Positions 1,824 through 63,618 of a stretch of DNA of 64,000 nucleotides are shown piece by piece. Each line of letters starts with the position of its first letter. Within the stretch, counting starts at the first letter, position 1. Source of the stretch: Candidatus Doudnabacteria bacterium (lineage in GTDB: Bacteria; Patescibacteriota; Doudnabacteria; UBA920); the NCBI GenBank assembly GCA_016218585.1, contig JACRDK010000010.1, forward strand, positions 68,974 to 132,973. Reading direction: 5' to 3'. Below the pieces are notes generated by a model. It saw nothing but the letters and a program-made list of their open reading frames with translations. It did not search any database and was not told where the DNA came from. The translations under genes and the position numbers were made by a program.

Positions 1824-3002
1824 ATGAAAATAATAAGCATAACTGAAGAAAACTTTAGCCAAATAGATTCGCAGGAGTTGCTTAACCCGGCGAGGTATGT
1901 TGAAGTTGAAAATTTGGTTTTAGCCGTAGGCTGGGAAGGTTATCCGCAAGCTGTTAATCTTGCTTCAATTCTGGTTGACCGGTTGTCAGTGGTTGCGGAA
2001 AAAATGCCAAAAGAATTATTTGCTAAATATCTTTTTTTGCTAAGGGTTTTAAAGCTCTTTGGTCTTCGGGCGCTTACAGACAAGGAAAAACAGAAATTTT
2101 TTAGCGAGGGTATTTTAGACGTATTTAAATCAGACCTTGTTAATGTTCATGAACAAGTCGATTACACCCTCAAAGCCTATGCATACGCGCCTGACATATT
2201 AAAGAGCCTGCGTGACTCCTTAATTACAGGGTTGGAAAAAAATAGCGAAATTTTAGGTAAAAAAAATATTAAAGTTACATTTAATGGTGAGGATAGGCTA
2301 GTAAACCCAATGGTTCAAAATTGGTTAGCGGACTATAATTCTTTATTTCACACTTCTTCCCAAATAAAAAAAAGAGGGGGCTACGAACAAATTAATTATA
2401 TTACTGGTTCTTCAAATGCGAGGTTGTTAGAGAAACAAGATTCTGCTGTTTTGTTAAAGTTAATTCAATTTTATGATTGGCTTAAATTTGACCCACTGTT
2501 GTATAACTTTAGAGAGCAAGGGTCGCCTTTGTGGGAAGAAGAAATAATAAATGTAGAAAAACCGGAAAAATTTATTCCAGATGATTTAGCTTCCATTATT
2601 GAAAATATAAGATCTTCAGATTCTTCAAATGGTAATGGTCCGGAAAAAAGTTATATCAGCACAGAAAAGTTAGAATTGCCGGAGGAGTTCCAGAAACAAG
2701 ACAGTGTTGTTAAAACGCCGCCAGTTACGCCAACTCCGCCGAATGTGCCAAAGTTAAAGCCGATGGAGGAAATAAGCAATTTGGCATCCAAGCCTTTGAC
2801 TACTTCCAGGCCGCTTGTCGGCGGGTATAAGGCCGCTGCAGCAAAAGGGGTAAGCGCCCGCGGAATTTTAAGCCAGTCAGATGACGGCGACAAGGGCTTA
2901 AAGATGAGTTGGCAAAATCCGGAACCGGATATTCAAGCCAAGCAGCAGGAAATAGACAAAAAGTTAGAAGATTTGGAAAAAAGAACCAAGGGCAGCAAAT
3001 AA
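1824..3002 (+). CDS. Hypothetical protein (T4SS-cluster associated)
   Basis: 392-aa ORF tightly spaced after the previous gene. It has a proline-rich C-terminal stretch and no recognisable motif. Confidence 0.45.
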   Translation: MKIISITEENFSQIDSQELLNPARYVEVENLVLAVGWEGYPQAVNLASILVDRLSVVAEKMPKELFAKYLFLLRVLKLFGLRALTDKEKQKFFSEGILDVFKSDLVNVHEQVDYTLKAYAYAPDILKSLRDSLITGLEKNSEILGKKNIKVTFNGEDRLVNPMVQNWLADYNSLFHTSSQIKKRGGYEQINYITGSSNARLLEKQDSAVLLKLIQFYDWLKFDPLLYNFREQGSPLWEEEIINVEKPEKFIPDDLASIIENIRSSDSSNGNGPEKSYISTEKLELPEEFQKQDSVVKTPPVTPTPPNVPKLKPMEEISNLASKPLTTSRPLVGGYKAAAAKGVSARGILSQSDDGDKGLKMSWQNPEPDIQAKQQEIDKKLEDLEKRTKGSK

Positions 3003-3032
3003 AATTTGTAGTTTCGCATTATACATATAATT

Positions 3033-4325
3033 ATGCAGGCTGAAAAACTTGAAAATTTGAAAAGTCTAATATCGTCGTCGCCAATATTGCTGCCTCAGGA
3101 GCGGACAGAGTGGCTGACGCTTTTGGGTTTGATGAACGACAAACAGTTAAATGAGCTGGAAAAGATTCTCCAGTCTGGAATTAAGAATCAAGAATTAAGA
3201 ATTAAGGAAGAAACACAAACCACCTCAAGCCAAAAATCTGCAAGTCAGGTTGCGTCTTTTCAACCGGCGATTTTAAAATCCGAAGCTCCCAAGCAGGTTC
3301 CGAATTTGAGCCATATAATGAACTTGCCAAAAACTTTTGACGGCAAGCCCGCGGCTTTAAAAATTCCCCAAAACCAGACAAGTGGCTTTAATTTTAAACC
3401 ATATGGCGTAAGCTTAGACAAACCGGCAATAAAAGCAGCCCCGGCGGTCTCTTCAGTCGACCAGAAAGCAAAATCCGGATTTGCGTCGAAGTTAAAATCT
3501 ATTTTTACAGAAAAAGAATTAACCACCAGTCAGCCCAAGTATGAGTTAAAGCTTCCGCCTCCGGAGGTGCCAAAACCAAAGCCGAAAGTTGTAGCGCAAC
3601 CGACTGCGGAAGCAAAGCCGGTGGTTCAGCCAAAACCTTCAGCAATTCCTGCAGTTCAACAAAAATCTGTTGTAACGCCTTTGGCTCAGCCAAAGCCGAT
3701 TACCGAAAAAAAGACGGAGATGGCGCCGGTTCAAACCCCTCAGGTAAAGCCGGAATTAAAGAAAGAGCTGGAAAAAATTGTCCCAACTGTCCCGCAGTCA
3801 GTGGAATCTATTTTAGCCAGCTTAAAAAAGCCGGCCGAGACCCCAATTTTCAATAAAGCGGAACACCAGGCTCCGGTCCAACAACAGCCACGCCCTGCAC
3901 GCCAGACCTCGGGTTTAAATTTTGGCCACGCTTCGGAAAAAATCAGGCAGGATACCCTGGCTTCGGTTAAACAGCATTTGGAAGAAACCGGCAGATCACA
4001 AAACGTTCCTATATTCCAAAAAGTATTGCCTAAAAATTGGGATATAAAATCTCTGGAAGACTTAAAAGCTATGGACGCGCTTATTCTTACCGCTGATTTG
4101 TCGACAGTTGCAAAAAAAATTAAAAAACTTTATAGCAGCCACGATTTTCATGATGTAATATTTAGCCTGGAAAATAGCGAACTCTATAAGAATTATTTAA
4201 AAACCGGCACAGAAATACTCACTAAACAAACCGACTTTGAAAATTTAAACCCCGCATCGGGTTTTTTGGACAGAAGCCAATTTGAGAAATTTACCGATCT
4301 GCTTAGGGAAATTCAAGGAGAATAG
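3033..4325 (+). CDS. Hypothetical proline/lysine-rich protein (low-complexity PKP repeats)
   Basis: 430-aa ORF with a PPPEVPKPKPKVVAQP type low-complexity region, which would fit a periplasmic or cell-envelope spanning protein. Confidence 0.45.
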   Translation: MQAEKLENLKSLISSSPILLPQERTEWLTLLGLMNDKQLNELEKILQSGIKNQELRIKEETQTTSSQKSASQVASFQPAILKSEAPKQVPNLSHIMNLPKTFDGKPAALKIPQNQTSGFNFKPYGVSLDKPAIKAAPAVSSVDQKAKSGFASKLKSIFTEKELTTSQPKYELKLPPPEVPKPKPKVVAQPTAEAKPVVQPKPSAIPAVQQKSVVTPLAQPKPITEKKTEMAPVQTPQVKPELKKELEKIVPTVPQSVESILASLKKPAETPIFNKAEHQAPVQQQPRPARQTSGLNFGHASEKIRQDTLASVKQHLEETGRSQNVPIFQKVLPKNWDIKSLEDLKAMDALILTADLSTVAKKIKKLYSSHDFHDVIFSLENSELYKNYLKTGTEILTKQTDFENLNPASGFLDRSQFEKFTDLLREIQGE

Positions 4326-4364
4326 GGACAAGTATATAGCATTTAGCATATAGAATTTAGAACA

Positions 4365-4736
4365 GTGGAAAACCATACTAAAATCCAAAATTTTACAGAT
4401 CTTATAGTTTGGCAGAAGTCACATGCTTTAGTTTTGGATGTTTATAAGCTGACTAAAAAATTTCCAAAAGATGAGTTATTTGGTTTGGTTTCTCAATTAC
4501 GTAGAGCTGCTGTGTCAATAACCTCAAATATTGCTGAAGGTTTTGGGAGGTTTTCCGAGAAGGAGAAGCTTCATTTTTATTCTTTCTCATATGGGTCACT
4601 TTTAGAAGTTAATAATCAAATATTAGTTGCAAAAGATCTTGGTTATATGAGTGAAGAAGAAAAACAAAAAGTAGTTATGCTGTCCATAGAAGTTGGCAAA
4701 ATGCTCCAAACGTTAATGGCAAGAATTAAATGCTAA
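4365..4736 (+). CDS. Four-helix-bundle protein (23S rRNA intervening-sequence protein family-like)
   Basis: 123 aa with the characteristic FPKDELFGLVSQLRRAAVSITSNIAEGFGRFSEKEKLHFY core. GTG start. Flanked by related imperfect inverted repeats. Confidence 0.7.
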   Translation: MENHTKIQNFTDLIVWQKSHALVLDVYKLTKKFPKDELFGLVSQLRRAAVSITSNIAEGFGRFSEKEKLHFYSFSYGSLLEVNNQILVAKDLGYMSEEEKQKVVMLSIEVGKMLQTLMARIKC

Positions 4737-4789
4737 GTATTTATAGAGCTAAATGCTAAATTCTATCTACTATATGCTATAATTTAGAT

Positions 4790-5248
4790 ATGCAATTCCC
4801 AGTACCACAATTTACCGACGTTGAAGATAAAATTATTGGACCGCTTACAATAAAGCAGTTTGGAATTTTGTTTGGCTTAGGAGTGGTTTTGTTTTTGGGA
4901 TATTCAGCCACTAAAAGCATAATAGTTCTGATATTTCTGTTTTTAATTCTAGGAATTCCCGGACTATCCCTTGCTTTTGCGAAAATTAATGGGCGCCCTG
5001 TTTACAATAGCATTGGATATTTTGTTAAATTTTTCTTGAGTCCTAAAGTGATGGTCTTTCATAAAGAAGCTGTTTCTTTAAGGTCAGACGCAGAAGTAAA
5101 AGACGCAAATTTGAAATCCGACACGGTAACTAAGCAGTCGGACAAAGAAGATACTCAAGACAATCTCCGCAAGGTGCAGCAATTGTTAAGGCAGACCCAG
5201 GACCAGGAAGAAGAAATGGTTAGGGCAAGAAGCAAGAGTCAGGAATAA
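4790..5248 (+). CDS. PrgI/VirB3-like small membrane protein of T4SS
   Basis: N-terminus MQFPVPQFTDVEDKIIGPLTIKQFGILFGLG is followed by two TM helices. This is the pattern usual for PrgI-family genes next to VirB4. Confidence 0.55.
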   Translation: MQFPVPQFTDVEDKIIGPLTIKQFGILFGLGVVLFLGYSATKSIIVLIFLFLILGIPGLSLAFAKINGRPVYNSIGYFVKFFLSPKVMVFHKEAVSLRSDAEVKDANLKSDTVTKQSDKEDTQDNLRKVQQLLRQTQDQEEEMVRARSKSQE

Positions 5249-5369
5249 TGAATCAAGGCACATGCAGAGATAGCTTAACAAGTTCTTATAAAGATTTATT
5301 TAGAAAGTGGTTACCCGAATTAATAAAAAGTTTCAAAACATAATTCTTAATTCTTGATTCGTAATTCTA

Positions 5370-6056
5370 ATGCGTTTAGAAATGCAAAACAAAAAAGGGG
5401 CGGTTGGCAAGCCGACACAAAGTTTTTTAAAGATATCGGAAATAAAAAACGATACTGTTGTTTTAGAGGACGGCAGCATGCGAGCTATTGTTGCGGTTTC
5501 CAGCACGAACTTTGATTTAAAAAGCCAGGACGAACAAAATTCTATTATTTTTAACTTTCAGAGATTTTTAAATTCCCTGGATTTTTCCATTCAGATTTTA
5601 ATGCAGAGCAGGAAAATGGAAATTGGCGATTATTTGGAAAAGCTTAAGCGTCTGGCGGAAAAACAGACAAACGAGCTGCTAAGAGTGCAGACTGCGGAAT
5701 ACACAGAGTTTATTAGCCGTCTTATTGAAAATGCCAGCATTATGAATAAGAATTTTTATATTATAGTTCCTTTGGGGGACAGCATTCTTCCTTCGCCCGC
5801 CGGATTTTTTAGCAAGCTTTTGGGCAATGGTAAGACCAGGGAAATTGAGGAAAAGATTCAAAATTTTGAAAGGGCCAAAGAAAAACTGGACGGGCGCGTT
5901 ACCTCGCTTATGGCAAATCTTTCCGGAATTGGGATTAGGGGTGTTAAGCTTAAAACAGAGGAAATAATTCAGCTTTACTATAATTCGTACAATTTTGGCG
6001 CCGGCCCGCTAATAGATCCTACTCAACTGGAAGAAATTAAAATCACCAAGAGTTAG
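5370..6056 (+). CDS. virB4: VirB4/TrbE N-terminal domain fragment (split gene, first part)
   Basis: ISEIKNDTVVLEDGSMRAIVAVSSTNFDLKSQDEQNSII resembles VirB4 N-terminal regions. The downstream ORF continues with the YPR...WL region and the ATPase motifs. Confidence 0.5.
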   Translation: MRLEMQNKKGAVGKPTQSFLKISEIKNDTVVLEDGSMRAIVAVSSTNFDLKSQDEQNSIIFNFQRFLNSLDFSIQILMQSRKMEIGDYLEKLKRLAEKQTNELLRVQTAEYTEFISRLIENASIMNKNFYIIVPLGDSILPSPAGFFSKLLGNGKTREIEEKIQNFERAKEKLDGRVTSLMANLSGIGIRGVKLKTEEIIQLYYNSYNFGAGPLIDPTQLEEIKITKS

Positions 6057-6074
6057 AATCAAGAATTTTGAATT

Positions 6075-6470
6075 ATGAATCAAGCAGAAAACAAAGGCAA
6101 AATAAAGTCTTTTATGGACCTGATTGCTTGGAAAGAAGCCCATCAATTAGTATTGATAATATATGATGTTACAAAAGGTTTTCCCAAAGAAGAAATATTC
6201 GGTTTAGTTATGCAATTAAGAAGAGCTGTAGTTTCAATAACATCCAATATAGCAGAAGGTTTTAGTAGGCAGTCGTATAAAGATAAGATTCATTTTTATA
6301 GTATGGCTTTAGGCTCTCTTACAGAAGTTCAAAATCAAATTTTAGTTTCAAAAGATATTAAATATTTAGCTATAGAAGAGTTTAACAAATTAGTGGACCG
6401 GACCGTAATTGTTAGTAAGTTATTAAATGGCTTAATAAAAAGCTCTAAAACCCTAATTCTTAATTCTTGA
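6075..6470 (+). CDS. Four-helix-bundle protein (second copy), inserted between the two VirB4 parts
   Basis: 131 aa, about 50% identical to the 4365..4736 product (FPKEEIFGLVMQLRRAVVSITSNIAEGFSRQSYKDKIHFY). Its stop codon lies inside the upstream repeat of the next gene. Confidence 0.7.
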   Translation: MNQAENKGKIKSFMDLIAWKEAHQLVLIIYDVTKGFPKEEIFGLVMQLRRAVVSITSNIAEGFSRQSYKDKIHFYSMALGSLTEVQNQILVSKDIKYLAIEEFNKLVDRTVIVSKLLNGLIKSSKTLILNS

Positions 6471-6484
6471 TTCGTAATTCAAAT

Positions 6485-8332
6485 ATGAGCATTTTTGGAA
6501 AAATTTCAGAGATAGAGCTTCAAGAAAAAAAGCAGTTGCTTGAAGAAAAGGAAGCTGAAAGCAGCACTCGCGCCAGCTTGCGGGATTTAGACGTGACTTA
6601 CCGGGAAGGCCTTACCACATTAAGGGACCTTATTGCCCCTTCGTCTCTAAAGTTTGAAAGTTCTTATTTTGAGCTAAACGGCAAATTAGGCCGAAGCTTT
6701 TTTGTGCTGGCATACCCAAGGTTCCTTTCTACCAACTGGCTGTCATTTATTATTCAGGCTGAAGGCGCGCTGGATTTGTCTATGTTTATTTATCCGATTG
6801 ACTCCGCGGAAATATTAAAGAAGCTTAAGTCAAAGGTGGGGGAAATTGGCTCGCAAATGTCCATTAACCAGGAAAAAGGCATGGTGCGCGACCCAATGCT
6901 TGAAACTGCTTATAAAGATGTGGAAAGTTTGCGCGACAATTTAATGCAGGGAACGGAAAAATATTTTCGATTTGCTTTGTACTTTACCATCTATGCTGAT
7001 GACCTAAAAGAACTGGAAAAGTTTTCAACTACTTTAGAAAGCTCGCTTGGCTCAAAACTTATTGTTACCAAGCGCGCGCTGCTGCAAACCCAAAATGGTT
7101 TAAATTCAACTTTACCTTTGGGAACCGACGAGTTGGATGTGGCTAATAATATGAACACCAGCCCGTTGTCGTCCTGTTTTCCTTTTGTTTCGTCTGATTT
7201 AACCAGTAATGACGGAATTTTATATGGGATTAACCGCCACAATAACAGTTTAATTTTATTTGACCGGTTTGCCATGGAAAATGCTAACGCCGTGGTATTT
7301 GCCAAGTCCGGCGCGGGAAAATCTTATGCGGTAAAACTTGAAGTTTTGCGCAGTTTGATGGTCGGCACGGAAGTTATTATTGTTGACCCGGAAAACGAAT
7401 ATCAACATTTGGCTGCGGCGGTTGGCGGCACTTATTTGAGCGTCTCCTTAAACTCAGCTTCCAGAATTAATCCGTTTGATTTGCCGGCTGCTATTGAGGG
7501 AGAAGACAACGGCGACGTGCTAAGAAGCGCGGTTATTAATTTGCTGGGTCTTTTCAGTTTAATGATAGGAAAACTTAATCCGACCGAAGAAGCTTTAATG
7601 GACAAGGCTATTTGGCAAACTTATGCCAAAAAAGATATTACCCCGAATTTAACCGATTTTCACGGCGTGGAATATCCGACTATGAACGATTTGGTGGAAA
7701 TTTTAAACAGCATGGTTGGCGCCGAAAGCTTGGCGCAGCGTTTAGAAAAGTATACCCAGGGAACTTTTGGAGGGCTTTTAAACCAGCAAACCAATGTTGT
7801 GTTAAATAACCAACTGGTTGTTTTTTCCATTCGTGATTTGGAAGAAGAGCTCAGGCCAATTGCAATGTACATAATTTTGAACTTTATTTGGAATATTGTG
7901 CGTTCGGAATTAAAAAAGAGAATTCTTGCGGTAGACGAGGCTTGGATTTTAATGCAGCACGAAGATAGCGCCAGGTTTTTGTTCGGCATTGCCAAACGCG
8001 CCCGCAAGTACTATTTAGGCCTTACCACAATTACCCAGGACGTGGCCGACTTTTTAGCCAGCCCTTATGGCAAGCCAATTGTGACTAACTCATCTATCCA
8101 GCTGTTGCTTAAACAAAGCCCGGCAGCTATAAATATTATTGCCGAAACTTTCTTTTTAACCGAAGGGGAGAAGTATTTATTGCTGGAAAGCGAAGTTGGA
8201 GAAGGAATTTTCTTTGCCGGGTTAAAGCACGCGGCAATAAAAATTTATGCTTCTTACGTGGAAGACCAAATTATTACTACAGACCCGAAGCAGCTTTTGG
8301 AAATTCAAGAGAGCCAGGACAAACTTAGTTAA
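6485..8332 (+). CDS. virB4: VirB4/TrbE-family T4SS ATPase (C-terminal main part)
   Basis: Walker A FAKSGAGKSYAVK and Walker B ILAVDEAWILM are present, and the overall architecture fits. The ATG at 6485 directly follows the heptad repeat element. Confidence 0.8.
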   Translation: MSIFGKISEIELQEKKQLLEEKEAESSTRASLRDLDVTYREGLTTLRDLIAPSSLKFESSYFELNGKLGRSFFVLAYPRFLSTNWLSFIIQAEGALDLSMFIYPIDSAEILKKLKSKVGEIGSQMSINQEKGMVRDPMLETAYKDVESLRDNLMQGTEKYFRFALYFTIYADDLKELEKFSTTLESSLGSKLIVTKRALLQTQNGLNSTLPLGTDELDVANNMNTSPLSSCFPFVSSDLTSNDGILYGINRHNNSLILFDRFAMENANAVVFAKSGAGKSYAVKLEVLRSLMVGTEVIIVDPENEYQHLAAAVGGTYLSVSLNSASRINPFDLPAAIEGEDNGDVLRSAVINLLGLFSLMIGKLNPTEEALMDKAIWQTYAKKDITPNLTDFHGVEYPTMNDLVEILNSMVGAESLAQRLEKYTQGTFGGLLNQQTNVVLNNQLVVFSIRDLEEELRPIAMYIILNFIWNIVRSELKKRILAVDEAWILMQHEDSARFLFGIAKRARKYYLGLTTITQDVADFLASPYGKPIVTNSSIQLLLKQSPAAINIIAETFFLTEGEKYLLLESEVGEGIFFAGLKHAAIKIYASYVEDQIITTDPKQLLEIQESQDKLS

Positions 8333-8400
8333 ATTTCCAATTTCCAATATCCAATTTCCAAATTTCAAACAGAATTCTTTTGGAAATTAGTCATTAGGAA

Positions 8401-11382
8401 TTGGAAATTTTTAATAATATGGCCGATACGTCCACTCAAAATGATACTCAGGAGGAAGAACTAAGCCCGCAAGCGGGTAAGCGGGAAGATTCCGATACCA
8501 TAGCAATTCGGGAGCCTTTTAATTTGGGCGGCCAGGACAGAATAGTTTATGATATCTCGGTAGATAAGGGTCCCAAATTAACTTTTGGCTGGAAAATAAA
8601 GCCCGGGTCTGTTGTGGAAATTTCCGGCAGCGGGCTGGATATTTATGACCAGATAATTTTGTGGATCGCCGGGAGCCGGGAAGAATACAGAGAGATTGAC
8701 CGCAGCAAAGACGGAAGAACTATAAGTTTTAAAGTTCGCGATAATATAAGCGAGCTTTATGCCGAGGGGGCTGCGGCTGAGTTAGAATTTGTAAATTCAG
8801 GAAACGCGCAACAGAACCGTTATTTAAAACAACAATTTAGAATTGCCCAAGAAACGGAAGAGCAAAAAAAACAACGGAAAGTGCAGGAAGAATCTGACCG
8901 CATAAAAAACGCCGCAGGGATTGCAGCCGAGCAAGCTTTAAATTCAACTCTTGCCGCCGCAGGCTCAGTTCCTGTTTCCGCTGGTGCCAATGCCGTTGCC
9001 TCGTCAGCAGCGCCAGAGCGGGCCCGGCAAATTAATGAAGAGTTAGACGATGACGGCGAAAATACTTCAGACGTTGTCACTGATGGGTCAGAACAGGAAG
9101 TTTCCGGAACAGGTGTTGCAGGCATAAAAACCCAGGAAACAATTACTCAAACCGCTACAGGAGAAACAGATAATGTTGTTTCCGGTTCAATAAATCAAAC
9201 AGTAAATACTGAAGTGCGATCGGCCGGTCAAACAGAAACAAATGTTTCGGGTTCTGTTGAAAGCCAAAGCCAAAGCCAAAACACTTCCAGGGCACAAATT
9301 AATTCTAATGTTTCTTCTTCAACCACAACTCAAACTCAAGCCTCTGCTAACGTTTCTTCTTCGGGTAAGGTAGAAAGCCAAACCAGTTCAGGCGGCTCAA
9401 GGGAAACCAAAATTTCCGGCAATGTCTCAGGCGGTGTAAGCGGGAGCGGAAAACAAACAGTTTCGGCAAAAGCTTCGACAAACAGGCAGGTTAATGCCCA
9501 AACCAGCGCAACAGTAAGCGGCCAAGGAGGTAGTAAGGGTCAGGCCGGTTTACAAACTGAGTCTGAGGTTAGCAATGAAGTTAATGCTAAGGCAACTCAA
9601 AATCAGTCAGTCCAAAATCAAGAGCAGATTCAAGAAAAAACAAAAACAGAAGCAGAAACATCAGCTAAGTCAGAAGCCAGTTCCGGACAGAACCAGTCTC
9701 AACCAGAAACCCCACAAGCTCAAAAACCAGAAACTGGTCAGGAAAAAACAGCCAAAGATACTCAACCCGAACAACCACAACAGGCAGCCCCAGCCCAGGC
9801 CAAGCCAACAAAAACCCAGGCACCTGGAAAGGGTAATATTGACGGAGCTTCCCCAAAACCTCTTGATAAAACTGCAAAAAAATCTGTTGAGCCAAAGACA
9901 GGTACAGAACAACAAGAGCAAGCTCCTGTTAAGCCGCCAAAAGGCTTAGAGGGTGTTTTAAGTAAGTTTGGGGCAAACAGCGCAGCCCTGGATTCTAAAA
10001 TTGGCTTTAGGCCTACGTCTTTAGATTTAAAAAATAATGAAAAGCAAAATAGTTCGGCCAAGCTAGGAGGAGGCAGGACAGGCGGCAGGGCGGAAGATCA
10101 GGATACAAAAGAAAAGGATGATAATCAAAAAGAACCTGAAGTCCAGCAGGGTGCCGGAGCAGCTCCGTTAAAACAGCCGCTTGGGGATATGCCGCAGGGC
10201 GATCAGAAATCGGAGGTCGGGGATCAGGCGGGTGTGCCGCCAGCAAGACAGCCCAATCAGGTGCCGGAGGAAGAACAGCCAAAGCAAGATAAAGATTCCG
10301 AAAAAGAGCCTCAAGAGGAAGTTGAGCAGCCAAAGCAAGCAGATGATAACCTGCCAAATGCGGATCAAGGCGTTAGAAGTTTTAGCATTGCCGAAGCGGA
10401 AAAGTGGTTAAACACAACAGTTAATGTTTACTTACAAACTTTGGCCACAATGGTGTGGGCAGGGGCATTGCCTACTTTAGGTTTAATGATTTTAATTGGC
10501 GCTATTGGCGGCGATTTAATTTGGCTGTTGAAAGATCGGGTTGTAAAAGAAGCATTAAAGAGAACTCCGTTGCCAAAAAGATTTGGCAATATTAAGCCTG
10601 AAGATTTAAAAATAAATATTAATTTTGCAATTAAGGCGCAAATTGTTCTTTGGAATTTAATTGTTGCTTTGATTTTGTGTTTTATTTTTGTTTTTGTGTT
10701 TACAATATTTTGGTCAATTTGTAATTCGCCGATTTATTACCCAATCAGGCAGACATCTTTAAAATCCGCCTGCGAGTATCTGGACAGCACCAAATTAAGC
10801 TCGTCTTTAAGTAATTTTCAAAGCACCGGCAGTTTTGTTGCGAGCAATAATACCCCGGGTAGTTTAATTAGCACCGCCAGTTGGACTGACCAAATAAATA
10901 GCACGGCGCAAAAATGGAATATTGACGCCTGTATTTTGCGCGTGGTAATACAAAAAGAATCAACCGGAAAAGCAGATGTAATTGGCTGCGACTGTGCTGC
11001 TGACAAACACCCGGAATATTGCCCGGATAAAAGGAAAACATACAGTTCAGACTACCAATTTAACTGGGCGCAATGTTCTTATGGTATTGGGCTCACCCAA
11101 TGGACTATTTATCCCAAAGGCGGCAGCGGATACAAGGCTTGGCAGGATGCCAGCACCCCTTCCAGGCAATTATACTCTTCCTGGTACGGCATTTCCGACT
11201 TTTTAAACCCAACCACCAGCTTGGATTTAACAGCTAAAGCTTTTAGCGCTAATTTAGCCAGGGCTAATGGGGACGTGGCCTCGGCTTTTGCGGCGTATGT
11301 AGGAGCCAGCAACGTACAGGCTCAGCTGGTAGCCGACAGAATGGCTTTATATAATTTGTGTAAAAGTTCAGCCACTCCTTAA
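8401..11382 (+). CDS. Large membrane protein with a long S/T/Q-rich disordered region and a C-terminal lytic-transglycosylase (SLT/VirB1-like) domain
   Basis: TM helices occur around aa 700-760. The C-terminal region has QKESTGKADVIGCDC and YGIGLTQWT, which are SLT-like catalytic Glu-Ser and GLxQ motifs. The likely true start is the ATG at 8419; 8401 is a TTG. Confidence 0.55.
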   Translation: MEIFNNMADTSTQNDTQEEELSPQAGKREDSDTIAIREPFNLGGQDRIVYDISVDKGPKLTFGWKIKPGSVVEISGSGLDIYDQIILWIAGSREEYREIDRSKDGRTISFKVRDNISELYAEGAAAELEFVNSGNAQQNRYLKQQFRIAQETEEQKKQRKVQEESDRIKNAAGIAAEQALNSTLAAAGSVPVSAGANAVASSAAPERARQINEELDDDGENTSDVVTDGSEQEVSGTGVAGIKTQETITQTATGETDNVVSGSINQTVNTEVRSAGQTETNVSGSVESQSQSQNTSRAQINSNVSSSTTTQTQASANVSSSGKVESQTSSGGSRETKISGNVSGGVSGSGKQTVSAKASTNRQVNAQTSATVSGQGGSKGQAGLQTESEVSNEVNAKATQNQSVQNQEQIQEKTKTEAETSAKSEASSGQNQSQPETPQAQKPETGQEKTAKDTQPEQPQQAAPAQAKPTKTQAPGKGNIDGASPKPLDKTAKKSVEPKTGTEQQEQAPVKPPKGLEGVLSKFGANSAALDSKIGFRPTSLDLKNNEKQNSSAKLGGGRTGGRAEDQDTKEKDDNQKEPEVQQGAGAAPLKQPLGDMPQGDQKSEVGDQAGVPPARQPNQVPEEEQPKQDKDSEKEPQEEVEQPKQADDNLPNADQGVRSFSIAEAEKWLNTTVNVYLQTLATMVWAGALPTLGLMILIGAIGGDLIWLLKDRVVKEALKRTPLPKRFGNIKPEDLKININFAIKAQIVLWNLIVALILCFIFVFVFTIFWSICNSPIYYPIRQTSLKSACEYLDSTKLSSSLSNFQSTGSFVASNNTPGSLISTASWTDQINSTAQKWNIDACILRVVIQKESTGKADVIGCDCAADKHPEYCPDKRKTYSSDYQFNWAQCSYGIGLTQWTIYPKGGSGYKAWQDASTPSRQLYSSWYGISDFLNPTTSLDLTAKAFSANLARANGDVASAFAAYVGASNVQAQLVADRMALYNLCKSSATP

Positions 11383-13132: not shown

Positions 13133-13289
13133 AGCAAGTTCGAACATATTTGACACTCTTTATTTTAGTGAACCTATAAATTTCTAATTTACCTAATTGA
13201 CCTAATTTCTAAACAAATCCCAATGAAGGAATTTGGGCATTAGACATTGTTTAGGTCAATTAGTACAATTAGAATAATTAGAATTTTTT

Positions 13290-14612
13290 ATGGTTAAGTC
13301 TCAAACAATTTTTGTCTGTTCCAACTGTCAGCATAAAACCCCGCGTTGGCAGGGAAAGTGCCCAAACTGCGGACAATGGAATACCCTGGAAGAACAGGTA
13401 CAGTTGTCTTCAAAGACGGCATATTCCGGCGTGGCCGTAAAACCTGTAGATTTGTCTGGCGTGGAAATATCTATGCACGAACGAATAAAAACCGGCATTG
13501 GTGAATTTGATGAAGTAGTCGGCGGCGGCGTAGTGCCCGGGAGCTTAGTTCTATTGGGCGGCGACCCCGGAATCGGAAAATCCACTTTAGCGCTCCAGTT
13601 GTCTATGAATGTGGATGCAGAGGTATTGTACGTTTCCGGCGAGGAATCGGTAAGCCAAATTAAATTGCGGGCAGACAGGATAAATAAAAACCACAGGCTA
13701 AATGTGTTGGCGGAAACTTCGCTGGACGCAATTTTAAGCGCTATAGAGGCGCAAAAACCGGAACTGGTGATTATAGACTCAATCCAGACAATGTACTTAG
13801 AGCAGGCCAGCGGCGTTGCCGGAGGCGTGGCTCAGGTAACTTCCGCAGTGCAGCAAATAATGCGCGCTGCCAAGCAGAATCATATTTCCTTTATTATTAT
13901 TGGCCATGTGACCAAGGAAGGTTACTTAGCAGGACCAAAAACTTTGGAGCATATGGTGGACACGGTTTTATATTTGGAAGGGGAGCGGTTTGCCGCCTTC
14001 CGTATTTTGCGTTGCGTAAAAAACCGTTTTGGCACCACAAACGAAGTTGGGGTGTTTGAAATGGCCGGCGGCGGTTTAGTGGAAGTAAAAAATCCTTCCC
14101 AATTATTTTTGGGCGAGGACAGCATTGAAGCCTCGGGAAATGTAATTACCGGAATAATGGAAGGCAGCCGCGCGCTGCTTTTGGAAATTCAGGCATTAAC
14201 ATCTTCTTCCAGCTTTGGTTATCCTAAGCGCACTACCGCGGGGTTTGACAATAACCGCCTGCAATTATTAGCCGCCATACTTTCCAAGCGGGCAGGTTTA
14301 AATTTATCAAACCACGATATATACGTAAATGTTGTAGGTGGAATAAAAATAGACGAACCAGCCGCAGATTTAGCCGTGGCTTTGGCAATTGTTTCCAGCA
14401 TAAAAGATAGCGTAATAAAAAATACAGTGGTAATAGGGGAGCTTGGGCTTTCCGGCGAGGTAAGGTTTGTGCCGAATTTGGAAAAAAGAATTAAGGAAGC
14501 TGAAAAATTAGGTTTTACTGAAATAATTTGCCCAAGAAATAAAATTTCTTATAAGGGTAAAATAAAAATCCACCAGGTAAAGACTTTGGCGGAGGCCTTA
14601 AAATATATTTAA
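13290..14612 (+). CDS. radA: DNA repair protein RadA/Sms
   Basis: N-terminal C4 zinc ribbon CSNCQHKTPRWQGKCPNCGQW, RecA-like Walker A GGDPGIGKST, and a C-terminal Lon-like domain. Confidence 0.9.
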   Translation: MVKSQTIFVCSNCQHKTPRWQGKCPNCGQWNTLEEQVQLSSKTAYSGVAVKPVDLSGVEISMHERIKTGIGEFDEVVGGGVVPGSLVLLGGDPGIGKSTLALQLSMNVDAEVLYVSGEESVSQIKLRADRINKNHRLNVLAETSLDAILSAIEAQKPELVIIDSIQTMYLEQASGVAGGVAQVTSAVQQIMRAAKQNHISFIIIGHVTKEGYLAGPKTLEHMVDTVLYLEGERFAAFRILRCVKNRFGTTNEVGVFEMAGGGLVEVKNPSQLFLGEDSIEASGNVITGIMEGSRALLLEIQALTSSSSFGYPKRTTAGFDNNRLQLLAAILSKRAGLNLSNHDIYVNVVGGIKIDEPAADLAVALAIVSSIKDSVIKNTVVIGELGLSGEVRFVPNLEKRIKEAEKLGFTEIICPRNKISYKGKIKIHQVKTLAEALKYI

Positions 14613-44576: not shown

Positions 44577-44587
44577 TTTTGTTTTTT

Positions 44588-44656
44588 TGTAGGGGCTGGC
44601 CTTGGCCGCCCAAAATCTCAGTAATTTAAAACGGGCGGCTGAAGCCGGCCCCTACA
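44588..44656. repeat. REP-like palindromic element, left copy (TGTAGGGGC...GCCCCTACA)
   Basis: A long imperfect hairpin immediately after the secA stop. It is paired with the copy at 45166..45249. Confidence 0.7.
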
Positions 44657-44708
44657 AAAGCAATTCTTTTGTATGAGTGTTTTGCCGGAAAGAAAACTAA
44701 ATCGTTAA

Positions 44709-45170
44709 AAAAATTTTGACTACGCGTCAGCGGGATATTATTTTATTACCTTATGTACAAAAAATAAGAAGCATTATTTTGGCAAAATTGAGAATGGCTT
44801 ACCAGTCTTAAATAAAGTTGGAAAACTGGTTTGCGAAACATGGCTCACTTTACCGGAAATATTTTCAGGCATAGAATTAGACTTAAGTGTGGTTATGCCA
44901 AACCATTTTCATGGGGTTATAATTTTTAAACGAAACCCTCATTATGCAAAAGCCTGTAAGCAGGCAAGTCTCGGACAAATTATTGGAGCTTTGAAATCAA
45001 AGACAAATGTTTTGACAAGAAAAAATATTTTTCCTGACATGAAAAGTGTTGAATTATGGCAAAAAAGTTTCTATGACAGAGTTATAAGAAGCGAAGTTGA
45101 ATTGTTAAAAATTAGAGAGTATATTCAGAATAATCCATTAAAGTGGAGTTTGGATGAATATTATGTGTAG
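44709..45170 (+). mobile_element. REP-associated tyrosine transposase (RAYT / IS200-TnpA-like, HUH-Y1), start disrupted by an in-frame TAA
   Basis: AGYYFITLCTKNKK, the HUH motif VMPNHFHGVI, and C-terminal REYIQNNPLKW. The upstream ATG at 44673 is in frame but separated by a TAA at 44706-08. Confidence 0.7.
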
Positions 45171-45249
45171 GGGCGAGCTTTATCTGCCCGAAAATTAAAA
45201 GCCCAGTTAAATATAAATCAACCGCGGGCGCCTAAAGGCTGCCCCTACA
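45166..45249. repeat. REP-like palindromic element, right copy, overlapping the RAYT stop codon
   Basis: tgtaggggcgagctttatctgcccg...cgggcgcctaaaggctgcccctaca. Confidence 0.7.
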
Positions 45250-45340
45250 AACCATTAATAAAATCAGATGGTTACGAAACCAGCGAGCATTTACGCCCAA
45301 GTGTATTGCCATAAAGGCTTTTTTTTTATATAATAATCCC

Positions 45341-45622: not shown

Positions 45623-45647
45623 CGAGAAGAATTAAGAATCAAGAATC

Positions 45648-47138: not shown

Positions 47139-47199
47139 AGTCAAGGAATTTCTAATACCTAATTACTAATTTCTAAACAGTTTTCAATTTAAAATTTAT

Positions 47200-55196: not shown

Positions 55197-55326
55197 GCAT
55201 TTAGTAGATAGCATATAGAATATAGAAAAATAATTATTATCCACGAATTCACTAATCTGCGCGAATCATACTAAAGAGCATTTGTGAAATTAGTGAAAAT
55301 TCGCGAATTAGCGGAAAATTAAAAAT

Positions 55327-55884: not shown

Positions 55885-55974
55885 CAGAATTATGAAGTAT
55901 GAGTTAAGAATTATGTGGTAAACATCCTAATTCATAATTCCAGATTCTTGATTCATATTTAAACAGAATAATTT

Positions 55975-60903: not shown

Positions 60904-61046
60904 ATTAAAGATGCAAATTTGCAGATGCACTAATGAAACTAATATCTACAGATGCTAAAAAAACAGAATTAACGGTTATTTGCCTGCCTACCGGCAGGCA
61001 GGTATTATTAGTGCATTAGTATATTAGTATCGCGTATTAGTACACT

Positions 61047-61587: not shown

Positions 61588-63540
61588 ATGAGAAATCCAT
61601 TTGAAATAAAAACCAGTTTTAGAAAACCGGACAGTTTAAAACCTTTAGACTGGGAAGAATCTGCCGTTGACTCAAATAGTTCGGTAGACGAGCTGCACGA
61701 TGCCGAAAGAGTCGGCCCTAAGCAGAGCTGGCTATGGATGGTTTTGGTTTTGACGTTTGGAATTTTTGGCGCGAGAATATTTTTTTTGCAGATTGTCCGC
61801 GGTTCGGATTTTAGAACAATGTCGGACAATAATCGCGTGCGCAGCCAAAGCCTGCTTGCTCCCCGCGGTTTAATTTTGGACAATTACGGACAAATTCTTG
61901 CGCAAAATACCGCCAGTTTTAACCTGGTGGCAATTCCTTTTGATTTGCCTAAAAACGCGCAGGATCTGGAAACGGAAGTAAATACAATTTCCTCAACTTT
62001 TATTTTTGATAAAGATGAAGTTTTAAAAAAATTGCGCGCAGCTTCGCCGGCACAGCTTACTCCCATTGTAATTTTGCAGGACATAAGCCAGGATCAGGCG
62101 ATTTTATTTGAAACCAGAGCCAGCGAATTTATTGGTTTTTCGGTTCAGCAGATTCCCGTGCGCGATTACGTGGAGGCTCCGGTTTTTTCCCATATTCTTG
62201 GCTATACGGGATTGGTAAGCGAAGATGATTTAAAACATTTAAACAAAGACATATACGATTCAGTTGATTTTACCGGAAAGTCCGGAATTGAGTCGGTTTA
62301 TGAAAATTATCTGCACGGAGAAAATGGCAGGGATTTAGTGGAGGTAGACGCGACCGGAAAGCTGCTTAATATTTTGGGGCAAAATAGTCCGCTTCCGGGC
62401 AACACGCTGCAGTTAAATATAGACAAAGGGCTTCAGGAAAAACTTTATAATGATTTAAAAGCCGGCAATAATCCCAAAGCGGCCGCGGTTGCTATTAATC
62501 CAAAGACCGGGCAAGTTTTGGCGCTGGTGAGTTTGCCGGGTTTTGATAATAATTTATTTGCCCATGGCATAAAAAAACAAGACTACAGCCTGTTAATAAA
62601 CGACAAAAATTTACCATTATTTAACCGCGCCATTGCCGGGACTTATCCGCCGGGATCAACAGTAAAGCCAATGGTGGCGTTAGCGGCGCTGCAGGAGGGA
62701 ACAATAAGCCCGAATACCGTAATTAATGACCGCGGAGTTTTAGTAATTCCAAATCAGTTCAATCCCGCTATTAGCTATAATTTTTACGGCTGGGACAGGG
62801 GAGGCTTAGGCCCGATGAATGTTTATTCCGCGATTGCCGAAAGTAGCGACATTTATTTTTATACCGTTGCCGGCGGGCATCCGAGCAGCCAGGTAAAAGG
62901 CTTGGGCGCGGAAAAATTGGCGGAGTATTATAAAAAATTTAATTTGGGCAGCCCGGTTGGAATTGATTTGCCAGGAGAGAAGCCCGGGGTTGTGGCGGAT
63001 CCAACCTGGAAGGCAAATTATTTTAAAAATGACCCAATTTTAAGCAAGTGGTATTTGGGCGACACCTACCATATTGGCATTGGCCAGGGAGATATGCTGG
63101 TAACACCTCTGCAGGTGGCCGAATGGACCGCAACAATTGCCAATGGCGGAACCGGCATGAAGCCGCAGCTTTTAAACAAAGTTATGGACACTAATGGAAA
63201 AACAATCTTTCAAAACCAGCCCCAGGTTTTAGTCCAGAAATTTGTTGATGATGCAAATATTAAAGCAGTGCAGCAAGGCATGCGGGAAACAGTTATTTCC
63301 GGCAGCGGACACCAGCTTGCTTCTTTGCCGATTACATCCGCCGGAAAAACCGGTACTTCTCAGTTCGACGGAGCCGACCCAAAGCGAACCCACGCCTGGT
63401 TTACGGCTTATGCGCCTTATGAAGATCCGCAAATTGTAATTACTGTTTTGGTGGAAGCCGGCGGTGAAGGGCACATTGCTTCCGTGCCGGTTGTAAAAGA
63501 CGCGTTATTGTGGTGGGCGCAGAATAGATATGGAAAATAG
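61588..63540 (+). CDS. mrdA: Penicillin-binding protein 2 (transpeptidase)
   Basis: An N-terminal TM helix, a dimerisation domain, and the transpeptidase motifs STVKP, SxN-like and KTGT. Confidence 0.85.
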   Translation: MRNPFEIKTSFRKPDSLKPLDWEESAVDSNSSVDELHDAERVGPKQSWLWMVLVLTFGIFGARIFFLQIVRGSDFRTMSDNNRVRSQSLLAPRGLILDNYGQILAQNTASFNLVAIPFDLPKNAQDLETEVNTISSTFIFDKDEVLKKLRAASPAQLTPIVILQDISQDQAILFETRASEFIGFSVQQIPVRDYVEAPVFSHILGYTGLVSEDDLKHLNKDIYDSVDFTGKSGIESVYENYLHGENGRDLVEVDATGKLLNILGQNSPLPGNTLQLNIDKGLQEKLYNDLKAGNNPKAAAVAINPKTGQVLALVSLPGFDNNLFAHGIKKQDYSLLINDKNLPLFNRAIAGTYPPGSTVKPMVALAALQEGTISPNTVINDRGVLVIPNQFNPAISYNFYGWDRGGLGPMNVYSAIAESSDIYFYTVAGGHPSSQVKGLGAEKLAEYYKKFNLGSPVGIDLPGEKPGVVADPTWKANYFKNDPILSKWYLGDTYHIGIGQGDMLVTPLQVAEWTATIANGGTGMKPQLLNKVMDTNGKTIFQNQPQVLVQKFVDDANIKAVQQGMRETVISGSGHQLASLPITSAGKTGTSQFDGADPKRTHAWFTAYAPYEDPQIVITVLVEAGGEGHIASVPVVKDALLWWAQNRYGK

Positions 63541-63618
63541 CATATAGGATTTAGGACGGGGGATGTGTTATGTAGGCTGCTTGATACTAAGCGTTAATTC
63601 CCTTATACTTGAACTAAT

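Follow-up and report, generated by a model that had tools for sequence, protein, structure and literature searches.

The question raised by this locus is whether an inserted element has broken a virB4 gene or has settled in a gap between two genes that was already present. The stretch analysed (hereafter the window, 64,000 nt; positions 68,974 to 132,973 of the forward strand of contig JACRDK010000010.1, assembly GCA_016218585.1) comes from the genome of a Candidatus Doudnabacteria member (Patescibacteria). It contains two open reading frames (ORFs) related to VirB4, at 5370..6056 and 6485..8332 on the + strand, which are separated by a gene for a small four-helix-bundle protein of the family known from intervening sequences (IVSs) of 23S rRNA (IVP). 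One and the same repeat precedes the start codons of both virB4 ORFs. A preliminary description of this DNA had taken the arrangement for a selfish cassette that split an intact virB4 and supplied the transcription and translation signals for its downstream half. Our analysis strongly favours a different reading, in which virB4 is split as a matter of course in this lineage, the insert is a cassette of IVS type, and the upstream repeat copy is part of a cassette relic. If recurrent colonisation of the spacer is included, the complete account of a two-gene virB4, an IVS-type cassette in its spacer and a relic next to it still appears to us the best explanation, and a probable one.

One VirB4 encoded by two genes

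Together, the 228-aa and 615-aa products of the two ORFs constitute one VirB4. The upstream gene (5370..6056) encodes a stand-alone N-terminal part of the TraC-like family PF26593, and the downstream gene (6485..8332; matches to NF045971, P-loop_TraG and AAA_10) encodes the middle region and the ATPase, measuring 615 aa from the ATG at 6485 and 621 aa if counted from the TTG at 6467. Against NF045971 the ATPase scored 366.8 bits (curated cutoff 325), with residues 35-579 covering profile positions 177-728, and the 228-aa protein aligned to positions 2-119 of the same profile, just ahead of the ATPase match. On NF045975 the 228-aa protein accounted for positions 101-233 (E 5e-9) and the ATPase for positions 283-893. 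Walker A (GAGKS) and Walker B (DEAW) motifs were visible in the alignment of the ATPase to P0207, a single-chain orthologue of 797 aa from Candidatus Colwellbacteria, residues 8-208 of which match the 228-aa protein with 41% identity and residues 226-796 the ATPase with 53% identity. Another fused protein, P0262 (898 aa, found on five contigs), is collinear with both ORFs in the same manner, and the genes of both P0207 and P0262 lie directly 3' of a prgI gene, as do the split genes of the window. The C-terminal half of P0207 matched VirB4 (4AG5, at 5e-44) and TrwK (at 1e-9) in the PDB.

No match to the 228-aa protein was obtained in the Pfam-A copy searched, nor in the PDB with a 49-sequence profile, and its identity was deduced from precomputed PF26593 assignments, NCBIfam, the fused orthologues and a fold search. 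Its AlphaFold (AF2) model had a predicted local distance difference test (pLDDT) value of 86, and the top 14 Foldseek matches of this model in the PDB were TrwK/VirB4 structures, albeit at modest values (E 2e-3 to 7e-2, template modelling score <=0.48). The extents of the two ORFs had been given correctly before, and the alignment to single-chain VirB4 profiles and the collinearity with P0207 and P0262 bear out the earlier proposal that both belong to one VirB4.

The split itself proved to be widespread. Among 50 species-level genome loci fetched from Doudnabacteria and other Patescibacteria (referred to by L numbers), a stop codon stood between the TraC-like frame and the ATPase region in 50/50. 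Ten of 33 close relatives had a spacer of <=60 nt without an insert; L003, L009, L022, L024 and L032-L035 showed empty junctions of 2-27 nt, ranging from a TAA placed at the ATG (L032) or an overlapping TAATG (L035) through 6 nt (L024) and 9 nt (L009) to 27 nt (L003 and L022). In databases, the 228-aa protein had 1,761 detectable homologues, the best 120 of which were all 218-286 aa long and carried precomputed PF26593 'TraC-like' assignments, and in an exhaustive search with this protein short forms made up 148 of the best 150 cluster representatives. Fused TraC-like/ATPase forms were rare, some of them occurring in Patescibacteria, and the stand-alone TrsD/TraD family of Gram-positive conjugative plasmids (NF041427) also matched the 228-aa protein.

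Because all 50 loci are split, because empty junctions exist and because the stand-alone 227-aa family is large, the two-gene virB4 predates the insert; it is the norm of the lineage, and the cassette occupies a spacer that was already there. The claim that the cassette split virB4 was therefore contradicted by the comparison with relatives, 10 of 33 being free of any insert. The preliminary description had itself allowed that orthologues with the same two-gene order, and no full-length virB4 anywhere, would speak against it: that order was indeed found without an insert, while fused virB4 does exist elsewhere. It should be added that a split VirB4 is not new as such, since it is already represented in PF26593 and related to TrsD/TraD.

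Some irregularities of the ATPase gene were recorded in individual relatives. At L048 (5418-7363), about 1.9 kb breaks the VirB4 ATPase homology between query residues ~280 and ~268; an intein, an intron or some other inserted element may be responsible, and this would then be a genuine interruption of virB4, unlike the situation in the window. In L001 and L006, gene calling divided the ATPase into two ORFs (331 and 283 aa) with an overlap at residues 326-331 (L001 7168-9016); a frameshift, an error of sequencing or yet another split may be the reason. In the same L001/L006 locus, the GxxExxY cassette (see below) also carries a frameshift.

The intervening cassette, its relic and their turnover

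The 428-nt spacer between the two virB4 genes is filled by an intact cassette, IVP2 (6055..6483, + strand), which consists of an IVP ORF flanked by arms built of heptamers. The ORF (6075-6470, 131 aa) matched PF05635 (23S_rRNA_IVP) at E 2.7e-36, TIGR02436 (four helix bundle protein) and, at 1e-18, the XCC0516 structure in the PDB (2GSC); the Pfam and TIGR02436 matches uphold the earlier recognition of a gene similar to the 23S IVS protein at this place. The left arm (6055-6084) reads AGAATCA AGAATTT TGAATTA TGAATCA AG and the right arm (6454-6483) TAATTCT TAATTCT TGATTCG TAATTC; as inverted arms, 6056-6075 and 6454-6473 are 90% complementary, with alternative registers extending out to 6084 and 6483. 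The ORF starts inside the left arm, and its TGA stop (6468-6470) lies inside the right arm, which is the second copy of the repeat, as had been pointed out previously. The TAG stop of the TraC-like gene is situated at the foot of the stem, and the ATG of the ATPase gene follows ~2-4 nt past the right arm.

The repeat upstream of both virB4 genes is real, as shown by exact + strand copies of the 27-mer TAATTCTTAATTCTTGATTCGTAATTC at 5341-5367 and 6454-6480, with zero expected by chance. The first copy leaves 2 nt to the ATG at 5370 and the second 4 nt to that at 6485; a third copy with 1 mismatch was located on the minus strand (3178-3204). Similarity around the two exact copies exceeds the 29 nt initially described: 59 of 73 positions are identical between 5300-5372 and 6412-6485, and 25 of 33 between 5225-5257 and 6052-6084. 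Within IVP2 the 27-mer is one arm of the inverted repeat around the IVP gene. Further upstream, the 121 nt that separate prgI from the TraC-like gene are taken up by an internally deleted relic of IVP2 type (5228..5368, + strand). Its left part (5228-5257) is a degenerate left arm followed by ATGAATCAAG and overlaps the 3' end of prgI; its right part comprises ~40 nt of the IVP 3' end (5300-5340) and then the right arm (5341-5367), the middle being absent. The relic aligned to the intact cassette with a score of 145, as compared with 78 +/- 5 for shuffles, and a full IVP2-like cassette (72% aa identity) is present at the prgI/TraC-like junction of L018.

Judged by these alignments, the 'direct repeat' is to be read as the right arm of two cassettes of the same family, one intact and one a relic. 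Since both copies are right arms of sister cassettes, the repeat is not a signal for a broken gene. A scan for sigma-70-like promoters and terminators across 4200-8600 found nothing in either repeat copy, with site counts at the level of shuffles, and since empty junctions lack the repeat, expression of the downstream half does not depend on it. The idea that it supplies transcription or translation signals was thus abandoned. The 27-nt arms of the relic and of the intact cassette are 100% identical and the adjoining ~45 nt of interior only ~70-75%, which suggests that the arms were homogenised or are under selection.

A further intact cassette, IVP1 (4331..4781, + strand), occupies the spacer between a 430-aa gene (stop at 4325) and prgI. 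Its ORF (4365-4736, 123 aa) matched 23S_rRNA_IVP at E 6.9e-39 as well as TIGR02436, and its arms (4335-4360 and 4756-4781; 26 nt, 88% complementary) are composed of TAGCATT TAGCATA TAGAATT TAG. The IVP genes of IVP1 and IVP2 are 59% identical. The two IVP ORFs of the window reached 124.5 and 132.8 bits with PF05635 (cutoff 33.8) and 118 and 123.7 bits with TIGR02436 (cutoff 24). In both cassettes the arms are period-7 arrays, and the closing stems were present in minimum free energy (MFE) as well as centroid folds. Rfam scans covering 2500-9000 (E<=1) and the entire window (gathering threshold) returned only three tRNAs and chance miRNA-like matches on a hairpin at 8331-8410, that is, no known RNA family, intron or riboswitch over the cassette.

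Comparison of the TraC-like/ATPase junction across 33 close relatives revealed considerable turnover. Apart from the 10 spacers of <=60 nt, 8 measured 61-300 nt and were mostly hairpin relics, 7 held IVP cassettes (6 intact and 1 relic) and 6 held cassettes with a PDDEXK_3/GxxExxY gene. The IVP cassettes belong to the window, L017, L027, L037, L005 and L015, with the relic in L020, and the GxxExxY cassettes to L008, L010, L011, L014 and L029, with a frameshifted copy in L006; every junction cassette has its own inverted arms. ORF-less hairpins of 86-202 nt with heptamer-like arms were found at the same junction in L007, L012, L021, L025, L036 and L018. The flanks of L009 (empty), L014 (GxxExxY) and L015 (IVP) are mutually 84-85% identical and their contents differ, which implies at least two independent gains or replacements.

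The TraC-like/ATPase junction was rejected as a unique target, neighbouring operon junctions being often occupied too: of the spacers upstream of prgI, 8 of 24 exceeded 300 nt, as did 6 of 34 of those that separate prgI from the TraC-like gene and 15 of 33 of those that separate the TraC-like and ATPase genes, two of these 15 being protein extensions. Long junctions of L030, L031 and L023 were also considered as cassettes and rejected, for they represent low-complexity N-terminal extensions of the ATPase that begin with MSLFGP...; the 237-nt junction of L023 is one of them. These extensions (L030 4675-6171, L031 2209-2800, L023 4289-4527) are proline/glutamate-rich, 85-500 aa long and placed right after the conserved MSLFGP start, and their GC content is 0.58-0.59, as against ~0.3 in cassettes.

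The arms of the GxxExxY cassettes in L008, L011, L014 and L029 repeat a core CGAAT / CGGAT / CTAAT / CTGAT every 8-10 nt, unlike IVP2-type arms, in which GAATNNN recurs strictly every 7 nt. The type of arm repeat may thus go with the ORF family.

The design of the cassette turned out to be general. A metagenome scan with the IVP2 protein yielded 80 loci at 57-73% identity, 72 of them evaluable. Terminal inverted repeats (score >=13) were detected in 61 of the 72, and in none of 72 shuffled controls, and the median cassette span was 426 nt. Period 7 was the best period in 61/61 left arms, where GAAT was enriched 19-fold, and the IVP ORF was intact, at 126-145 aa, in 70 of the 72 loci. Neighbouring genes lay on the same strand in ~89% of cases (upstream gene 50/56, downstream gene 49/55), and the arms were <=20 nt from a neighbouring ORF in about two thirds of the loci. 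None of 20 metagenome loci checked was located in 16S or 23S rRNA, and there is no rRNA in the window.

Mechanism, rival explanations and known systems

Intervening sequences of rRNA have been known since 1990, and their origin, their mobility and the function of the S23p/IVP protein have been debated since the early 1990s. The IVS in the 23S rRNA of Coxiella burnetii is 428 nt long, with an S23p ORF, a 28-bp terminal stem, heptamers before the ORF and excision by RNase III (PMC4990558), and IVP ORFs have been recorded in 16S and 23S rRNA insertions of candidate phyla radiation (CPR) bacteria (PMC11270868). The window cassette resembles the IVP-encoding IVSs of Coxiella burnetii and Leptospira in its size of ~430 nt, the PF05635 ORF filling the loop, the ~25-28-bp terminal stem, the tandem heptamers beside the ORF start, the lack of an evident promoter of its own and an ORF prone to decay. 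It differs in lying between protein genes of an operon and not in helix 25 or 45 of 23S rRNA; moreover, cassettes of the window type have ORF-less hairpin derivatives and share their niche with GxxExxY cassettes. The cassette thus has the ORF, stem and heptamers of an IVS and lacks its defining location in rRNA. No description of IVP or GxxExxY cassettes outside rRNA in CPR bacteria, i.e., in mRNA operons, was found in the open-access literature.

On the basis of this resemblance the following sequence of events is proposed. Cassettes with an IVP or a GxxExxY (PDDEXK_3) gene would repeatedly colonise the short spacers that separate a stop from the next start where genes are codirectional, nearly always oriented like the host gene, and would subsequently decay to ORF-less hairpins and then to short spacers. 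Lacking a promoter, a cassette would be read through within the operon transcript; its paired arms would form a long stem of ~25 bp that loops the cassette out, so that the stop of the gene before it and the start of the gene after it come to lie at the stem foot. Such a stem would be a plausible substrate of RNase III, whose cut would free the RNA of the cassette and part the two neighbouring cistrons. That cassettes are tolerated through RNase III-type processing, as suggested by analogy with rRNA IVSs, is a possibility to which we give slightly less than even weight; alternatively, the stem may simply loop the cassette out and keep stop and start adjacent. We infer selfish mobility of these units, and the earlier designation as a selfish cassette can be retained in the more careful form 'cassette-like, probably selfish'.

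Several points weigh against this account. The diversity of ORFs and arms is the sole basis for assuming gain in place of differential loss. Neither target-site duplications nor a shared target motif were seen when empty and filled junctions were compared, L009, L014 and L015 included, and no transposase or integrase was found in or near the cassettes. Folding z-scores of whole cassettes were modest (-1.5 and -1.75 for the two cassettes, -0.7 for the relic). The metagenome loci similar to IVP2 carry no taxonomic assignment. The tight fit between stop and start may merely reflect the very short spacers of a compact genome. Finally, mismatches in the arms showed no excess of G.U on the sense strand (G.U vs A.C, 36 vs 51, p = 0.13), so that pairing of the arms could act at the level of DNA, as a terminal inverted repeat (TIR) or cruciform, and not of RNA.

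The last point leads to the alternative that survives best, although we consider it unlikely: the heptamer-armed units would be DNA-level transposable elements, mobilised by a trans-acting transposase that recognises their TIRs, with hairpins resembling miniature inverted-repeat transposable elements (MITEs) and with RNA structure being incidental. Besides the unbiased mismatches, the terminal inverted repeats, the presence/absence polymorphism and the short gene-less derivatives with arms of the same families at other places in the window would all fit such elements. However, the cassettes have no transposase in them or nearby, the only Y1 remnant of the window (44889-45170) being accompanied by unrelated GC-rich hairpins, and the target-site duplications are missing; co-orientation with host genes in ~89% of cases would be unexpected for cut-and-paste transposition, unless imposed by selection. 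Furthermore, arm sequences are not the same in different cassettes and so speak against a single transposase site common to all.

Likeness to known mobile units is partial as well. Repetitive extragenic palindromes with their REP-associated tyrosine transposases (REP/RAYT; REPINs, hairpin-forming REP doublets) and MITEs also show a gene between inverted repeats and many short intergenic hairpin derivatives, but the ORF of the cassettes encodes a four-helix bundle or a small PD-(D/E)XK protein instead of a Y1 transposase, and the arms are AT-rich heptamer arrays that vary between cassettes. The cassette as a REP/RAYT unit was consequently rejected: its ORFs are IVP or PDDEXK_3, and the only Y1_Tnp of the window belongs to the separate GC-rich element (44889-45170). 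With integron cassettes they have in common that they are promoterless, co-oriented single-ORF units with hairpin-forming repeats, reliant on read-through; they differ in the lack of an integrase and of an attC consensus, in repeats at both ends of the ORF, and in being dispersed singly among housekeeping and T4SS (type IV secretion system) genes and not arrayed.

A bolder version of our preferred account, which we regard as rather improbable, would make the IVP and GxxExxY 'IVS' cassettes of Patescibacteria a distinct and active mobile class that homes to operon stop-start junctions, with the heptamer stem providing tolerance. If true, the placing of stop beside start would permit shunt-like re-initiation or clean excision by RNase III, rRNA IVSs would become one special case, and the first fission of virB4, in the ancestor of Patescibacteria, might likewise go back to an insertion of this sort.

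Cassettes and hairpins might, on the other hand, be intercistronic elements of benefit to the host, maintained by selection for mRNA processing, stability or coupling, and not selfish at all. Their position exactly between a stop and the next start, their co-orientation with flanking genes and the occupation of most junctions of the operon in many relatives are what one would expect of such elements. Occupancy is nevertheless sporadic among close relatives (10 of 33 junctions at <=60 nt), the contents are interchangeable (IVP, GxxExxY, hairpin or nothing), and frameshifted or deleted copies are common (L006, L020 and the relic between prgI and the TraC-like gene). With these three features neutral or selfish turnover fits better than a conserved function, and we hold a host benefit for quite improbable.

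Less credible still is the scenario from which this study departed, i.e., a selfish cassette that split an intact virB4 and furnished the signals for its downstream half. It could appeal to the collinearity of the two ORFs with single-chain VirB4, to a cassette placed exactly at the junction with the identical 27-mer before both starts, and to fused orthologues known from some Patescibacteria. Against it stand the splits in 50/50 related loci, many of which are cassette-free with spacers of 2-27 nt, the large and conserved family of ~227-aa stand-alone proteins, differing cassette types at one junction in near-equidistant relatives, a repeat devoid of promoter-like matches and an upstream repeat copy that is the arm of a decayed cassette; for this genome the scenario is already contradicted. 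The notion that the four-helix-bundle gene encodes Avd, the accessory protein of diversity-generating retroelements, may be practically dismissed, since its weak matches to bAvd (PF22296; 26.5 and 33.2 bits) and DivGenRetAVD (28.9 bits, IVP1) fall far short of the curated 40 and 80 bits, in contrast to the scores with 23S_rRNA_IVP and TIGR02436, which greatly exceed the respective cutoffs. The gene is surrounded, moreover, by T4SS genes, and neither a reverse transcriptase nor a template/variable repeat pair lies nearby.

As for the host genes, the closest parallel is provided by the TrsD/TraD and TrsE/TraE (VirB4) pairs of Gram-positive plasmids, where a ~200-aa homologue of the VirB4 N-terminus is likewise encoded just upstream of the ATPase gene. 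The match to TrsD is under the curated cutoff (28.8 vs 200 bits, NF041427), and the ATPase of the window differs in having no N-terminal part, so that two genes make one VirB4.

While the headline claim that a selfish insert has broken an essential T4SS gene fails, the cassette is the part that is still useful. An IVS-type unit occurs in dozens of protein-coding contexts, and one orthologous junction is found empty, filled, holding a relic or with IVP and GxxExxY swapped; as a data set for comparison, these states allow inferences on how targets are chosen, how cassettes turn over and what the heptamer arms do. In annotation, such cassettes account for many genes labelled 'four helix bundle protein' or 'GxxExxY protein' and for odd AT-rich hairpins in CPR genomes, and they should not be taken for gene disruptions.

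The operon and other elements of the window

The locus is a conserved T4SS-like operon of a Candidatus Doudnabacteria genome; the window proteins correspond, by exact protein match, to MBI5530273-77 of a Candidatus Doudnabacteria metagenome-assembled genome. The prgI gene (4790..5248, + strand; PF12666, E 1.3e-10), which encodes a VirB3-like small membrane protein of Gram-positive-type T4SS, directly precedes the split virB4 and is syntenic at the locus in all relatives. An SLT-type hydrolase domain in the downstream 987-aa protein adds to the T4SS context, and a TrbL_3/VirB6-like gene is present upstream of the locus in syntenic relatives. The 430-aa gene preceding IVP1 extends from 3033 to 4325.

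The spacer between the ATPase gene and the 987-aa gene is filled by an ORF-less hairpin (8331..8410, + strand) made of ATTTCCA repeated 4-5 times and its complement. Its arms of 32 nt are 84% complementary, the MFE fold is a hairpin, and Tandem Repeats Finder (TRF) reported a period of 7; we interpret it as a cassette relic. Another ORF-less hairpin (55888..55960, + strand), whose arms belong to the same GAAT-heptamer family as those of IVP2, fills the spacer after an frr-like gene. Further heptamer hairpins or half-arms fill spacers at 13175-13290, 55197-55326, 60910-61031, 63538-63554, 45623-45647 and 47147-47176. The hairpin-filled spacers lie between codirectional genes, housekeeping ones included (after frr; between gatC and the next gene), and some of these hairpins share arm families with the two resident IVP cassettes.

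The third copy of the 27-mer corresponds to a left-arm-type array (3178..3206, + strand; GAATTAA GAATCAA GAATTAA GAATTA), which is complementary to the 27-mer at 26 of 27 positions and is translated in frame (GIKNQELRIKEE) within the ORF at 3033-4325. It is found where the conserved 47-aa N-terminus of the protein ends and a linker that is hypervariable in relatives begins, and gives the impression of a cassette arm that has become part of the coding sequence.

Finally, a truncated IS200-like Y1 transposase ORF (44889-45170; PF01797, E 1.7e-5) was identified between GC-rich hairpins (GTAGGGGC...GCCCCTAC) at 44585-45251. This decayed element of REP/RAYT type bears no relation to the cassettes with AT-rich heptamers. 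The prgI/TraC-like spacer of L003 is filled by a similar GC-rich hairpin (5870-5990).

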